A stretch of DNA of 30,986 nucleotides from a virus (Duplodnaviria; Caudoviricetes): the IMG/VR virus record IMGVR_UViG_3300032373_000079, positions 1 to 30,986 of that record; one strand, written 5' to 3'. Both the position numbers and the translations under genes were made by a program. The stretch's first letter is position 1, and every line of letters starts with the position of its first letter. Shown here piece after piece: positions 24,583-30,883 of the stretch. Below the pieces are notes generated by a model. The model worked only from the letters and a program-made list of their open reading frames with translations, did not search any database and was not told the DNA's origin.

Positions 24583-24957
24583 CTAAATCCGCGCCACCGC
24601 GGTTTGGTGCAGGGCTGGCACCGGCATCAACGCAAATTCAAGGCTGGCCACCACGGTACGCAAGGCGCTGACCGCCAAGCGCGCCGCCGCCAACAGCCGC
24701 GCCGAGGCATCCACGCGACGCCCGACCCGGGCTTGCCATAAATCCAAAATCGGGGCACCGCCGCCCGCCGCTTGGCACGCCGCGTCCAACGCGACCAAGG
24801 TGTTCAAAACATCGACGTCGGTGCGGCATGGGTTGGACAATTGCCGCAGTCGGTTTTCCGATACCCCGCACGCCGCCGCCGCCGGGCCTGCGCCAACCGT
24901 CTTGATGGCGGCAAACACCCGCCCCGCAAATGTGTCTGGGTCACGTTGATAAGTCAT
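24583..24957 (-). CDS. Putative CII-like regulator
   Basis: GAGPAAAACGVSENRLRQLSNP HTH, LDAAC...GGGAPIL; GAGGTG RBS; lies downstream of cro. Confidence 0.55.
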   Translation of the reverse strand: MTYQRDPDTFAGRVFAAIKTVGAGPAAAACGVSENRLRQLSNPCRTDVDVLNTLVALDAACQAAGGGAPILDLWQARVGRRVDASARLLAAARLAVSALRTVVASLEFALMPVPALHQTAVARI

Positions 24958-24966
24958 AACATCACC

Positions 24967-25176
24967 TCATTTTTCTGTGACGGATGGGCAAACGACGAAG
25001 CGGTTAACGCGCCACCCGGCGGGCCTTTCGTCATCGATAAACAACGGCCCGGAATATTGAAATGCGGCCTGAGCCTCCACACACACGGCGGGGGCCAACA
25101 TCATGGGCTGAACGTCGGCATCGACACGCCCGTCCGGCGCGATGACGGCGACGATGAAAAAGGCTTCTTTCAGCAT
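24967..25176 (-). CDS. Hypothetical protein
   Basis: 69 aa, AAAGG RBS. Confidence 0.6.
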   Translation of the reverse strand: MLKEAFFIVAVIAPDGRVDADVQPMMLAPAVCVEAQAAFQYSGPLFIDDERPAGWRVNRFVVCPSVTEK

Positions 25177-25202
25177 GGCGATACCTTTCGGGTTCAGCTT
25201 TT

Positions 25203-25239
25203 AAAAGTGCAACGGCTATCCTTGCCTTGACCGTTGCGC
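25203..25239 (-). terminator. Putative early terminator after gapR
   Basis: GCGCAACGG...CCGTTGCAC stem followed by TTTT on the minus strand. Confidence 0.55.
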
Positions 25240-25297
25240 CGGGGGTAGCAGCGACCATCCGTGAAGACGGCTTTCAAAGCCCCGGTGGTTCATGGCG

Positions 25298-25576
25298 TTA
25301 GGTCATCCCCAACGCCCGTTTGTAAGTGTCCAACATATCTTCTTGTTCCTGGCGGTCGCTCACATCCATCTTGCGCAATCGGATGATGATGCGGATGATT
25401 TTGACGTCGAACCCCGTGCCCTTGGATTCGGAATAGACTTCGCGAATGTCGGCCGCCAGGGTCGCTTTTTCTTCTTCTAAGCGTTCGATGCGTTCGACAA
25501 ATGACCGCAAACGTTCCGCGGCAATGCCACCCACGTCTGGACCCCCGCTAAAGTTTGGAATGTTGCCTTCAGGCAT
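25298..25576 (-). CDS. gapR: GapR (DUF2312) nucleoid-associated protein homologue
   Basis: [47 protein letters not shown]...YKRALGM is the GapR family signature. Confidence 0.93.
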
Positions 25577-25688
25577 CACCACCCCCCGCGCGCCCATTCA
25601 GGCCGCTCACAAATTGATCATTGGATTGAAGTGGCCCAAAGCCACCCCAACATGCACTGTGAGGGGGCTTAGAAAAGGAGCCCACCTC

Positions 25689-25946
25689 ATGCGCGACACA
25701 CACCCCGCCCCCGACAATGTCATTGCCCTGCGACCCAACGCACGCCAACCCGGCGGCGATCACCGCACCACCGAAGCCCGCCCCGACGAAGTTCACACTC
25801 CGGACGTCGTCATCGACGAACTGCGCGACATCGAAGTCACCATGATGGAATTGAGTTTGGCGCACCCCGCCACGGCCCCAGACCTGCACCTGATTTGCGA
25901 CTTGGCCCGCGCGGTACGCCTGGACTTTGAGGACGCGAACAGATGA
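25689..25946 (+). CDS. Hypothetical protein oriented against the cro operon
   Basis: Strong AAAGGAG RBS, 85 aa, GC3-rich codons, NVIAL motif and acidic helices. Confidence 0.7.
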   Translation: MRDTHPAPDNVIALRPNARQPGGDHRTTEARPDEVHTPDVVIDELRDIEVTMMELSLAHPATAPDLHLICDLARAVRLDFEDANR

Positions 25947-25975
25947 CCGAAGCCAATTTTTTAAAACGCCGGGGG

Positions 25976-26197
25976 TCATGCCGCCACCTGCTCAAAGCGC
26001 GCCAATTCAGCGCGAAACCAGGAATTCGGGGTAACGGCACCCCCCGTCGCGACGATAATCAAACGCATTTCCGTAGATTGGGGAACGCGCCCGTTGACAT
26101 ACCGCCGAATTGTTTCCGGCGGACGCCCGATGCGACGGCCAAAACCCGTCAACGTTTCTTCTTTTTCACTGAGATATTCGCGAAGTGTCTGTGTCAT
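25976..26197 (-). CDS. cro: Cro-like HTH repressor
   Basis: TLREYL...TLTGFGRRIG...TIRRYVNGRVP...IIVATGGAVTPNSW; divergent from cI. Confidence 0.88.
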   Translation of the reverse strand: MTQTLREYLSEKEETLTGFGRRIGRPPETIRRYVNGRVPQSTEMRLIIVATGGAVTPNSWFRAELARFEQVAA

Positions 26198-26203
26198 ACA
26201 AAC

Positions 26204-26286
26204 ACTTTCCACCAGTTTGGTGAATTAAGTCAACTGATTTTTTCACCTGTTTGGTGCTTTTTTGATTCCACCAATTCGGCGAAAAT
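26204..26286. promoter_or_regulatory. OR region: three CACC-N5-GGTG operators with divergent PR/PRM
   Basis: CACCAGTTTGGTG 26210-26222, CACCTGTTTGGTG 26244-26256, CACCAATTCGGCG 26269-26281; minus-strand -35 TTGACT at 26233-26228; plus-strand -10-like GAAAAT at 26281-26286. Confidence 0.8.
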
Positions 26287-26291
26287 GCGTC

Positions 26292-26768
26292 ATGGAACAT
26301 AATGCCCCAAATCGATTGCGTGAAATCCGCAAGGCTAAGGGCCTAACGCTAGAAGGCTTGGCGGCCCTGGTTGGATCTTCAAACCAGCAAATTCAGCGCC
26401 TGGAAAAAGGCGAACGCCGTCTGTCCGATGAATGGATGCGCACGCTGGGTCAGGCCCTGGGCGTCGCGCCCTGGGCATTTTTCCCGGAATTTGAAGGTGA
26501 TGCAGATATTGCCAAAAGCGATTACAACGCCACGATACTCGCCGAGGTGACCCACGATATCTTAACGTGTGCGCTGGAAGAATATGTTGAGAACCTTAAC
26601 GCCTTACCGGATGGTGTGACCGATACCATCACCGGCGCGATACTCAGCGTTTATGAAGACCACGCAGGGATCGGCCTCGACATGACCATTCCATCCGACC
26701 GCGAACGCCTCATCGACGCCAGCCGCAACGTGTTTCGCTTCGCCATCAAACAAAAGAAAACGGGATGA
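26292..26768 (+). CDS. cI: XRE-family immunity repressor without an S24 peptidase domain
   Basis: NRLREIRKAKGLTLEGLAALVGSSNQQIQRLEKGERRL HTH; divergent from cro; helical C-terminal domain. Confidence 0.85.
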   Translation: MEHNAPNRLREIRKAKGLTLEGLAALVGSSNQQIQRLEKGERRLSDEWMRTLGQALGVAPWAFFPEFEGDADIAKSDYNATILAEVTHDILTCALEEYVENLNALPDGVTDTITGAILSVYEDHAGIGLDMTIPSDRERLIDASRNVFRFAIKQKKTG

Positions 26769-26771
26769 ACG

Positions 26772-27098
26772 TCAATCCCGCATAGCTTTCGCCAAGGCTT
26801 TTTTGATATCACTGAGTTCTTTTTTTGCGGCGTCAAAACATACCTGCGCCGCGCGTAGCCTCAATAAATAATGTGCTACATCCGTATCTGCAATAAGCCC
26901 CGGCAATTCATTTACAGCACTCGCGTTGTCACTAATTAGATTGGTGATATCGCCATCCATGAGTTGGAAACGGTGCTTACAATACATCCCCATTTCGCCC
27001 GCTCTGCACGTACACGTTGCCGTTAGGTTGTCGCCTGAACGGTCAAATGAGACATCGTATAGGTCACCCTTAGATCCTCGTATGACAAAGCTCAACAT
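26772..27098 (-). CDS. SWIM zinc-finger protein (cargo)
   Basis: GSKGDLYDV...CTCRAGEMGMYCKH matches CxC-xn-CxH; C-terminal coiled coil; AT-richer codon use. Confidence 0.82.
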   Translation of the reverse strand: MLSFVIRGSKGDLYDVSFDRSGDNLTATCTCRAGEMGMYCKHRFQLMDGDITNLISDNASAVNELPGLIADTDVAHYLLRLRAAQVCFDAAKKELSDIKKALAKAMRD

Positions 27099-27116
27099 AG
27101 CAGGATTCCACTTTTG

Positions 27117-27353
27117 TTACGTACCCGCAGTGTCTTCAACCGCGTTACGAGGCTTGGACAGATTTGTCCCTGCGCATTGTTCACATGACCACCCACCGAA
27201 CTTGATGGCGCTTAAAACCCAAATAATCAACCAAAACCCCACCGTACAGATCGTCAATATTAAATGCAGAATATGATTGGTCGCTTTACGCGTTCCGCGC
27301 ACGTTCTTATTGCAGTCTTCGCAAAATCTCTGTTTGAATTCGTAACTCGCCAT
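27117..27353 (-). CDS. Small membrane-anchored zinc-ribbon protein (LITAF-like topology), cargo
   Basis: CEDC, then hydrophobic NHILHLILTICTVGFWLIIWVLSAI, then CEQC. Confidence 0.75.
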   Translation of the reverse strand: MASYEFKQRFCEDCNKNVRGTRKATNHILHLILTICTVGFWLIIWVLSAIKFGGWSCEQCAGTNLSKPRNAVEDTAGT

Positions 27354-27390
27354 GCCACCCACCATTTTTTGTATCATTGGATATTTCACA

Positions 27391-27418
27391 ACGATAACAC
27401 ACAAAATTTACGCAGCAA
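27391..27418 (-). promoter_or_regulatory. Putative sigma70 promoter for the cargo genes
   Basis: TTGCTG, 16 bp, TATCGT with an extended -10 TG. Confidence 0.4.
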
Positions 27419-28754: not shown

Positions 28755-29422
28755 GTATTTCCATCACCTGCAACGATACCACCGTCACCACCCCATCCGG
28801 CGGATGGCTGGATTTAATAGATCCCGACCCAGCCCAAATTCACATTGCCGACATTGCCCATCACCACGCGGGCACGAAGCGTTTCAACGCCTGCCTGGAC
28901 GTGACCATCGCCGAACACGTTTCGGCGGGGGTGTTCGTGTTGCGCGCGAAGTTCGGCCCGCTGTGTGCCACCATGCCATGGCTGGAACTGGCATGGGTGC
29001 TGCACGAAGGTCACGAGCCCTACACCGGCGATATCGTATCGCCCATGGCCAAGGCCGTTTTCCGCGTCACCCGCGGCATCGACGGGATAGAAATTGTCAA
29101 AATGAACGTGCAACAAGCGGTGCACGAACGGTTCGGCCTGCCCTGGCCACTGCCCGCCGACGCCCAGGCCGCCATCACATACGTCGATCGCGTCATGCGC
29201 GCCACCGAGGTCAGAGATTGCCGCAGCGGCGAGACGTGGTCGGATTTGCCCGAACCGTGGTTTGAACCGTTGATCAAGCCGATGGACGAAAAAGACGCCG
29301 GCACAGCTTTTCTTGATGCCTTTATCGACGCCGCCGCCAAAGCGGGACCAATCGCGTGGGACGTGGTTGCCCTAAACACCCACGCCGAAATCCGCGCGGC
29401 GCGGCTATCGGGGGCGTCATGA
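28751..29422 (+). CDS. HD-superfamily phosphohydrolase (YfbR/YfdR-like), HE variant
   Basis: IADIAH...RFN...TIAEH...LHEGHEPYTGDI...YVDRVMRATE.RD. Confidence 0.82.
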   Translation: MSISITCNDTTVTTPSGGWLDLIDPDPAQIHIADIAHHHAGTKRFNACLDVTIAEHVSAGVFVLRAKFGPLCATMPWLELAWVLHEGHEPYTGDIVSPMAKAVFRVTRGIDGIEIVKMNVQQAVHERFGLPWPLPADAQAAITYVDRVMRATEVRDCRSGETWSDLPEPWFEPLIKPMDEKDAGTAFLDAFIDAAAKAGPIAWDVVALNTHAEIRAARLSGAS

Positions 29423-30033
29423 ACCACCTTAGCCCCACCGAATTGATGGACATGGTGATTGAAGCCACAGCCGCCATCACCGGCTTACCCACCGCCGATT
29501 TTGTCACATCAAAATGCCGCGCGCGCCAGATGGCATTCGCCCGATTTGCCGGATGGCAGGTCATTCGCACCCTGGTTCCCGATGCGTCATTAGCCGCCAT
29601 TGGCGAACACTACGCCGGACGCGACCATTCGACCGTTCTCAACGGGGTGCTTCGGGCAGAATATTTGATGAAAACCAACGCGGCCTTTCGCGAACAGGTC
29701 AGTACCATCACCGTCACCACAAAAGTTTTAGCGTTGGCGAAGCCCCCCACCGCCACCGTGACGTCAACCGAACACATCCCCTGCCCCTGGTGCCACGCGC
29801 AACTGGAAAGCGATGAAGTGTCTTGCGACACCATCGCTGCACCTGCGGGTCAAGACGAAGCCGCTGTCACCTGCCCGCACTGTCACCGCGCGTTTGAAAT
29901 TCACAGCGCCACCGACACCTATCTGTGTGACGGCGATGCTTACACCATCGGCGTATTCACCAAAGCCGACCGGGCCTATATCAAAGCCCGCTTCGGGCTG
30001 ACCGCCCTCAAAGCGGCAGGGTTGGCAGCATGA
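29419..30033 (+). CDS. DnaA domain IV-like HTH fused to a zinc ribbon
   Basis: SLAAIGEHYAGRDHSTVLNG matches the DnaA C-terminal signature; CPWC...CPHC. Confidence 0.82.
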   Translation: MNHLSPTELMDMVIEATAAITGLPTADFVTSKCRARQMAFARFAGWQVIRTLVPDASLAAIGEHYAGRDHSTVLNGVLRAEYLMKTNAAFREQVSTITVTTKVLALAKPPTATVTSTEHIPCPWCHAQLESDEVSCDTIAAPAGQDEAAVTCPHCHRAFEIHSATDTYLCDGDAYTIGVFTKADRAYIKARFGLTALKAAGLAA

Positions 30034-30126
30034 ACGTAACGCACTTAAGCACCCCAATTCAAACCGCCCCTCGTGGGCCGTTTAACGCGCCGTTTTCCAT
30101 GGGGGGCCTCAACGTAGGAGGCGACC

Positions 30127-30714
30127 ATGAAACTCGGATATGCACGGGTATCGACCGAAGACCAACGCATGGATCTACAGCGCGACGCGCTGTGCCAGGC
30201 CGGAATTGCCAACGACAACGTCTATCAGGAACAAGTCTCGGGCGTGAAAACCGTTCGCCCGGAATTGGAACACTGCCTGAAAGCCTTGCGACCGGGCGAC
30301 ACGCTGGTGGTGTGGAAGCTGGACCGCTTGGGCCGTTCGGTCAAAGAACTGATCCGCATCACAGATTGGCTGCGCGAACACGACGTGGAATTTGTCAGCA
30401 TCAAGGACAACATCGACACCACCACGGCGGTGGGCAAAATGGTGTTTCACATGCTGGCGGCGTTTGCGCAGTTCGAACGCGACCTGATTTCGGAACGCAC
30501 CAAAGCGGGCTTGGCGGCAGCCAGGTTGCGCGGCCATCGCGGCGGACGCAAACCCAAAATCACCCCGCAAAAGTTGAAGGCAATCGAGGCGTTCCTAGCG
30601 GATCAAACCTGCACCATGACGGATGCATCCAAGGAATTCGCCATCAGCCGCGCCGCCATCTATCGCGCCCGCCAACGCGCCAAACAAAACGCCGCCGGGA
30701 CCGTCGCGGAATAA
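30127..30714 (+). CDS. Small serine recombinase (Hin/Pin invertase-resolvase family)
   Basis: GYARVST catalytic Ser, VWKLDRLGRS, FERDLISERT.AGL.AAR.RG..GGR, C-terminal HTH; AGGAGG RBS. Confidence 0.95.
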   Translation: MKLGYARVSTEDQRMDLQRDALCQAGIANDNVYQEQVSGVKTVRPELEHCLKALRPGDTLVVWKLDRLGRSVKELIRITDWLREHDVEFVSIKDNIDTTTAVGKMVFHMLAAFAQFERDLISERTKAGLAAARLRGHRGGRKPKITPQKLKAIEAFLADQTCTMTDASKEFAISRAAIYRARQRAKQNAAGTVAE

Positions 30715-30720
30715 TCACAC

Positions 30721-30744
30721 CGGGGCAGGCAACCCCCTGCCCCG
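30721..30744 (+). terminator. GC-rich hairpin after the recombinase gene (weak or no U-tract)
   Basis: Perfect 9-bp stem CGGGGCAGG/CCTGCCCCG. Confidence 0.45.
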
Positions 30745-30778
30745 TCACCGTGCCTTTGACCAAAAGGAACCCAGCCCG

Positions 30779-30883
30779 ATGAAAAAAACAATCGCGCGAT
30801 GGTGGTCCAACTTCGCCGCAGCCTTAGAAATTTTGCGCGCCGGAATGTGGGATGAAACCTCGGATAAACGGGAGGCAGAATAA
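30779..30883 (+). CDS. Small hypothetical protein (34 aa)
   Basis: AAAGGA RBS; MKKTIARWWSNFAAALEILRAGMWDETSDKREAE; TAATG-coupled downstream. Confidence 0.55.
   Translation: MKKTIARWWSNFAAALEILRAGMWDETSDKREAE

Follow-up and report, generated by a model that had tools for sequence, protein, structure and literature searches.

A cro-coupled antisense frame over a reversed gene in a phage lytic operon: a likely ribosome-cover bridge with counterparts in distant prophages

Narnaviruses carry a sense gene without TTA, CTA or TCA codons, and their reverse frame is aligned with it codon for codon. In the cited passages on these ambigrammatic viruses (Retallack 2021, PMC8316113), it seems to be more important that the reverse frame is translated than what it encodes. 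A related arrangement in bacteria is the noncontiguous operon, in which a gene of opposite orientation lies within a co-oriented run. In the portions of the S. aureus atlas drawn on here (PMC11034616), the antisense stretch is untranslated, and the persistence of transcription across it is called 'intriguing' and explained by uncoupled 'runaway' transcription in Gram-positives. The tha-1/ith-1 genes of phage 80alpha form a noncontiguous operon according to the excerpt cited (PMC11087260). Extensive antisense overlap has also been described for the active overlapping genes olg1/gene 10 at the switch of phage Fc02 (cited passages of PMC9936078) and for the olg pairs of P. aeruginosa (PMC8850804). 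At the other end of the range, in-register antisense ORFs are ascribed to codon usage in the section cited from PMC3454372, which refers to Merino 1994 and Silke 1997.

The window analyzed here comprises an entire virus record (30,986 bases, 56% GC). Pfam and PHROG profiles identify a divergent pair of HTH genes in it, along with a primase, a DNA methylase and a gapR-like gene. The closest matches of gapR belong to phages of alphaproteobacteria (69% for Azospirillum phage Cd), and on this ground the host is probably alphaproteobacterial. On the minus strand, cro is followed by gapR, two small genes and the replication genes, while the plus strand carries cI and gene X, the latter between the co-oriented cro and gapR (Table 1). 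The arrangement is that of the noncontiguous operons described in the sources above, with an opposite-orientation gene within a co-oriented run in a temperate phage, and by analogy expression in the lytic and the lysogenic state would be mutually opposed here. Unlike those operons as cited, the window has its antisense stretch under a coupled, stop-free frame in what is likely an alphaproteobacterial phage. A computed scan found no terminator-like site in this stretch, and cro and gapR would be co-transcribed across it. In being stop-free and codon-aligned, the reverse frame of the window resembles that of the narnaviruses as cited, and blocking codons are depleted in relatives too; it differs from the genome-long reverse ORF of those eukaryotic RNA viruses in being a local 411-nt frame within a DNA phage operon, with ATGA-type overlaps. 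Extensive opposite-strand overlap near the lysis-lysogeny region is shared with the olg genes of Fc02 and P. aeruginosa, but whereas their products are reportedly active or under purifying selection, the bridge peptides considered here are familyless, fold poorly and diverge freely in one pair.

Table 1. Features around the cI/cro switch, in positions of the window
Feature	Position	Strand	Remarks
gapR-like gene, phage-borne	25298..25576	-	92 aa from ATG 25576; Pfam GapR_DNA-bd E=2e-33
Minus bridge ORF	25569..25979	-	136 codons, 411 nt, in-register antisense of X
Candidate promoter of X, weak	25626..25653	+	TTGAAG-16 nt-CAACAT, by eye
SD of X, AGGAG	25676..25680	+	8 nt before ATG; -6.3 kcal/mol
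Gene X	25689..25946	+	85 aa; reversed insert in early lytic operon
Imperfect inverted repeat	25925..25997		centred on X/cro junction; CTTTGAG..ATGACC on both strands, 16/24 alike
Plus bridge ORF	25943..26302	+	119 codons, in-register antisense of cro; role unproven
cro-like HTH gene	25976..26197	-	73 aa, likely leaderless; PHROG repressor/regulator matches E 2e-4 to 5e-3
Predicted PR	26204..26233	-	-35 TTGACT (26233-26228), 18-nt spacer, -10 GAAAGT (26209-26204)
Three operator-like palindromes	26210-26222, 26244-26256, 26269-26281		CACC-N5-GG(T/C)G
Predicted PRM -10, GAAAAT	26281..26286	+	5 nt before cI ATG; poor -35 beside middle operator
cI-like repressor	26292..26768	+	158 aa, N-terminal HTH, no SD

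The frame at issue on the minus strand starts in the cro stop (ATGA, 25979-25976), runs antisense through the whole of X and ends with a TGA that lies 8 nt inside gapR if this gene begins at ATG 25576 (its start is set at 25597 by public gene callers). A sequence-only reading had described this ORF as 136 codons long with these two junctions, and every coordinate holds. X is without any TTA, CTA or TCA codon, and its antisense frame is thereby stop-free. Openness alone is ordinary for the antisense of X (P=0.27 with window codon usage, 0.70 with GC3-matched controls) and for that of cro (P=0.34 and 0.23), the window-usage values having been computed from a gene list, used also for codon log-odds and SD energies, that held the ORF 30030-30782 instead of the resolvase gene 30127-30714 and, in the openness calculation, one wrong start at 29422. 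When both junctions are included, the null for the minus frame is P=0.067. By itself, the minus bridge of the window could be chance, given this null and given that the cro stop is ATGA in 30 of 61 relatives anyway. Since the tail of cro holds an SD-like element (AGGTG, -8.0 kcal/mol) as well as the ATGA, a restart of ribosomes at that point is plausible.

Several other overlaps and structures are visible in the window. The serine resolvase/recombinase gene at 30127-30714 (+; Pfam Resolvase E=2.6e-47) is covered in another frame by the 250-codon same-strand ORF at 30030-30782, which is ATGA-coupled to the upstream gene and has no family match. In the spacer between gapR and X (25577-25700), the minus strand is structured (z=-3.25 for 25615-25700), and on the plus strand a predicted hairpin encloses the SD of X. 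Over the X stop, a short cUUCGg-type hairpin (GGC-TTCG-GTC, 25957-25946, by eye) is possible on the lytic strand. Beyond cI, a SWIM zinc finger gene and a small phrog_2697-like gene are convergent with it (26772-27404, -), and a terminator-like hairpin lies on the minus strand at 26781-26760. The cI stop is also ATGA, but the frame from there closes after 6 codons, and a bridge is absent from the window in the lysogenic direction downstream of cI.

No close relatives of cro, X or cI were found in viral contigs or in a set of 5.8 billion proteins. Metagenome contigs returned only the window's own contig, a search of 401 genomes found no relative with the query used, and the DNA locus of P0006, the one homologue of X, was not found in the collections searched. 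Because those collections yielded no orthologous locus, the layout was examined in distant analogues, comprising 80 phage gapR loci, 60 regions of ~8 kb round cro-like matches in alphaproteobacterial genomes, and three phage records. Genes were called with our own self-trained codon-model caller, which gave no bonus for coupling and largely agreed with two annotated records. The lytic direction was fixed in advance as the strand of cro or gapR. Module boundaries and non-phage genes were kept in the block set, and the signal is diluted as a result.

Reversed blocks in the lytic direction number 41 and occur in 36 of the 143 other loci; some loci contribute two blocks, and only one pair is related. 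A frame in register spans 25 of them (11.2 expected), leaving 16 unspanned. Eighteen are both spanned and coupled at the 5' end, against 3.8 expected, and 14 are coupled at both ends, against 1.2 expected, the null being underestimated for three locus-end cases; the other 27 are not doubly coupled. Blocking codons total 71 in the 41 blocks where 122.8 are expected, and three blocks have none at all against expectations of 15.1 (L215), 11.3 (L217) and 9.1 (L018). The longest bridges run to 588 and 684 codons, the latter over three genes in L217. Blocks in the mirror orientation, which served as control, are spanned in 6 of 26 cases (4.7 expected) and doubly coupled in two (0.3 expected, P=0.03). 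Of these two, L066 has a cro-like gene ahead of it and is probably lytic; the other is L189. On the cI side, double coupling was found in 0 of 18 blocks.

The genes beneath these bridges are diverse. A family scan of 30 of the 41 blocks gave a Pfam or PHROG match for the reversed gene in 12, including HicAB twice, ParE/HTH, DUF4145, WYL, VasI-like, HTH and others, and 6 of the 12 are doubly coupled (null sum ~0.5). Among the bridge peptides of relatives, 0 of 24 have a Pfam match. In the locus with the nearest cro/cI pair found (L050; 38%/44%), the bridge crosses a reversed gene other than X, an HTH gene, and again has its stop 8 nt into gapR. In L237, cro ends in ATGA and is followed by a 121-codon bridge and then another ATGA; a family search with its insert in 11 genomes recovered only itself. 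Toxin-antitoxin pairs (HicAB, ParE/HigA-like) are repeatedly found backwards beneath long bridges, either within prophage replication operons or at their ends, as at L237:3499-4134, L238:2386-3060, L217:916-1680 and L240/L241. An annotated hypothetical gene of phage RHph_Y25 (L087:1768-2172) is shadow-like with a longer opposite-strand ORF beneath, and its annotation may have picked the bridge.

One pair of loci, L240 and L241, allows sense and bridge sequences to be compared directly. Their reversed ParE/HigA-like modules are identical at 191 of 207 sense residues (92%) and at 132 of 207 bridge residues (64%), with 63 changes silent in the sense frame only and 4 silent in the bridge only. There is no blocker among 63 Leu/Ser codons, and both bridges start at the upstream stop. 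The expectation that related prophages would conserve openness and end-coupling, and not the peptide, is thus borne out in this distant pair for the open frame, the 5' start and the drifting peptide, but not for the 3' ends, which are uncoupled. In L060 and L067, a different open, -4-coupled frame is kept through a net length change of 54 nt.

Since ~13 of the 41 comparable blocks exceed chance, set against the window's own null of 0.067, the posterior that the minus bridge of the window is selected comes to ~0.87. The reading preferred here, with a probability of roughly 0.55, is that the minus frame is a selected ribosome-cover bridge while the plus frame of Table 1 is an incidental shadow of cro. 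Ribosomes finishing the likely leaderless cro would restart at the ATGA and translate a meaningless peptide, thereby occupying the PR transcript over ~400 nt of antisense. So occupied, the transcript would extend intact to gapR, the replication genes and the cII-like gene, without earlier termination or degradation. In the lysogen, a promoter of its own would drive X, which PR transcription would oppose on induction, in the style of a noncontiguous operon, and cI would be made from a leaderless PRM-type transcript needing neither an SD nor a conveyor. A consensus promoter scan of 24900-27000 returned 0 promoter-like sites; the predicted PR, whose +1 would coincide with the cro ATG, is under its threshold. 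The CII candidate at 24583-24957 matches only phrog_38866, a PHROG without an assigned function, and one weak relative.

The bridges had been proposed as ribosome conveyors that protect antisense stretches from Rho and hand ribosomes on. For the minus strand, the conveyor idea gains from a recurrent layout far above chance and from openness kept where the peptide is not, but the hand-over to gapR is doubtful. The gapR gene needs none, because it has a strong SD of its own, GGGGGGTGGTG, directly upstream of ATG 25576 (duplex -15.4 kcal/mol, the strongest SD computed), and the bridges of L240 and L241 are uncoupled at the very end where a hand-over would occur. As to Rho, its loading (rut) preferences make G-rich RNA a poor substrate. 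The lytic strand across the X insert is G-rich (C100 vs G146), which counts against Rho protection over X. For the window, translation of the frame and protection from Rho are both things that we infer from its sequence, and 'keep ribosomes on the RNA' is safer wording than 'block Rho'.

The plus strand carries the mirror image of this layout. The ATG of the plus bridge overlaps the stop of X (ATGA, 25943-25946), and the frame closes at a TAA 11 nt inside cI; these positions and the length of 119 codons agree with the original description. As cro is without TTA, CTA and TCA codons, its antisense frame is open. The stops of X and cro are separated by a 29-nt gap (2 mod 3), which puts both frames in register, and the mirror symmetry of the bridges is therefore partly one coincidence, since a single phase relation aligns the two. 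The peptides of 119 and 136 aa have no Pfam or PHROG match and both frames are antisense codon for codon, in keeping with the earlier view of them as non-protein shadow.

If both frames were functional and selected, a PRE-like promoter upstream of X would give a transcript bridged over cro and the operators to the SD-less cI. This reading is rather unlikely, and the plus frame taken by itself is unproven and more likely incidental, its chance of being functional being near one in four. Its joint null is ~0.01 given the phase (product 0.21 x 0.69 x 0.23-0.34 x 0.31) and ~0.002 when only ATGA is counted. X ends with GAGGA, then 9 nt, then ATGA, a combination that none of the 42 other reversed inserts shows, one of them ending in ATGA and none having an SD there; among other convergent gene ends, 2 of 64 have ATGA. 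Over cro, the plus strand is rich in C (97/79), a computed scan found no terminator-like site between X and cro, and a leadered RNA would give cI no SD. A 328-codon frame in phage Mae-JY35 (L086) also covers an HNH gene, cro and the switch and ends near cI, but its start codon is a TTG lying 20 nt beyond the stop, and its null is 0.05.

The other switches argue against a transcript that hands ribosomes to cI. A frame in register ending near the cI start occurs in 0 of 61 other cI/cro switches (1.7 expected), none of the eight loci with a reversed gene at most 200 nt from cro reaches cI, and L189, a mirror-orientation case, stops 47 nt before the likely cI start. The cro antisense is open in 17 of the 61, no more than the 23.7 expected. 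In three of the 61 (L038, L050, L230; 2.2 expected), it stays open across the switch and reads into cI in the cI frame. Moreover, ATGA gene ends are frequent in the window phage (13/42, two of the 13 coupled to nothing), and no CII-type site was identified at the switch. The inverted repeat at the X/cro junction (P=0.02 among gene-end pairs both ending in ATGA) may have copied the SD and ATGA tail of cro onto X; the junction hairpin has -25.7 kcal/mol, with z=-2.3 on the minus strand and z=-0.2 on the plus strand. A duplicated gene boundary as the origin of both ATGA junctions was considered and set aside as weakly supported (5.1 vs 4.2 of 12 alike, 9 cases, P=0.09).

A leaderless PRM-type start offers a simpler apparent cause for the lack of an SD before cI. 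The lambda switch consists of divergent cI and cro genes with PR, PRM and three operators, and CI proteins of the lambda type carry a C-terminal S24 autopeptidase. Lambda cI is leaderless from pRM in the account cited (PMC10491246). The window shares with lambda the divergent HTH genes, three palindromes and an SD-less cI with a predicted -10 directly upstream. It is unlike lambda in that cro also looks leaderless, with 94 nt from ATG to ATG, in the reversed gene and gapR after cro, and in its 158-aa cI-like protein, which matches HTH families only and no S24 peptidase in Pfam. Induction may use another route here, for example an antirepressor. Both the absence of an obvious SD before cI (-3.7 kcal/mol) and the three operators between cro and cI had been noted before, and both are found, the operators as operator-like palindromes.

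Among relatives, an A-nnn-T element ending 5-7 nt before the ATG is present for cI in 41 and for cro in 27 of the 51 switches (out of 61) that have 80-100 nt spacing, compared with shuffled means of 10.4 and 11.6 and maxima of 21 and 24. SD-like motifs precede 4 of the 51 cI genes and 0 of the 51 cro genes, vs 586 of 772 control operon genes. The cI and cro ATGs are 91-97 nt apart in 32 of 53 switches, a set without duplicate loci, without second pairs whose gaps are >300 nt and without the truncated L109, in which eight cI starts were set by eye; a second count gave 39 of 61, with a choice of starts that leaned to 94. Back-to-back cI and cro genes that both look leaderless thus seem characteristic of these alphaproteobacterial prophages, and the missing SD of cI would follow from leaderless initiation as a family trait, the -10 signature being present in those 41 relatives.

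A further possibility is that the 136-codon ORF is itself a gene with a functional product. It could specify an antidote to X on induction, which would parallel Ith-1 for Tha-1 as cited from PMC11087260, or it could be a real cro-coupled gene of which X is the shadow. The SD-like element in the cro tail and the normal operon junctions would suit such a gene, and public callers are split, Logan having called X while JGI/IMG and ENA called the 136-aa ORF instead. Codon scores show no preference for X, with log-odds of X vs bridge at -0.1 bit where genes score +23.6 +/- 11.9 on the gene list described above; with early-gene training the score is +8.7 for X. X nevertheless looks like the real gene because it is predicted to fold (single-sequence AF2 mean pLDDT 82, ~97 over residues 41-80, vs 52.9 for the bridge peptide), has an AGGAG SD and has a homologue of the same length (P0006, 85 aa, E=8.7e-4, 41-46% identity). 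Its predicted fold is a disordered N-terminus followed by a helical hairpin over residues 38-84; a PDB fold search with X gave nothing at E<=0.001, and its Atlas leads are all below 0.9. For the bridge peptide there is no Atlas feature match and the Atlas model has pLDDT 0.36, and the familyless, freely drifting bridge peptides of relatives likewise make a working protein quite improbable.

That chance produced both frames, as in-register shadows, begun at habitual ATGA ends, of two short genes poor in Leu and Ser, would agree with the window null, with the one phase relation behind both frames, with an open antisense register in 350 of 976 control genes (323 modelled) and with the statement in the cited section of PMC3454372 that such ORFs are common and due to codon usage, but it is very unlikely given that ~13 of 41 comparable blocks are doubly coupled beyond chance, which makes selection the likelier source, and for the minus frame it was dropped once the recurrence in the survey emerged.

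With the minus frame taken as a selected ribosome-cover bridge, the window has likely provided an instance of a recurrent layout not found in print: a literature search over a mainly open-access set of full-text papers returned nothing on reversed phage genes crossed by coupled cover frames. Bridges of this kind mislead gene callers into annotating the bridge over the real gene, as has happened in the window. If the preferred reading is true, cover frames would answer how transcription crosses an antisense stretch in proteobacterial phages, whose transcription is coupled to translation. They would also limit which accessory genes, toxin-antitoxin pairs among them, a phage could carry backwards in a lytic operon. 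Were both frames selected, continuity of translation would be a layer of the lysis-lysogeny decision.
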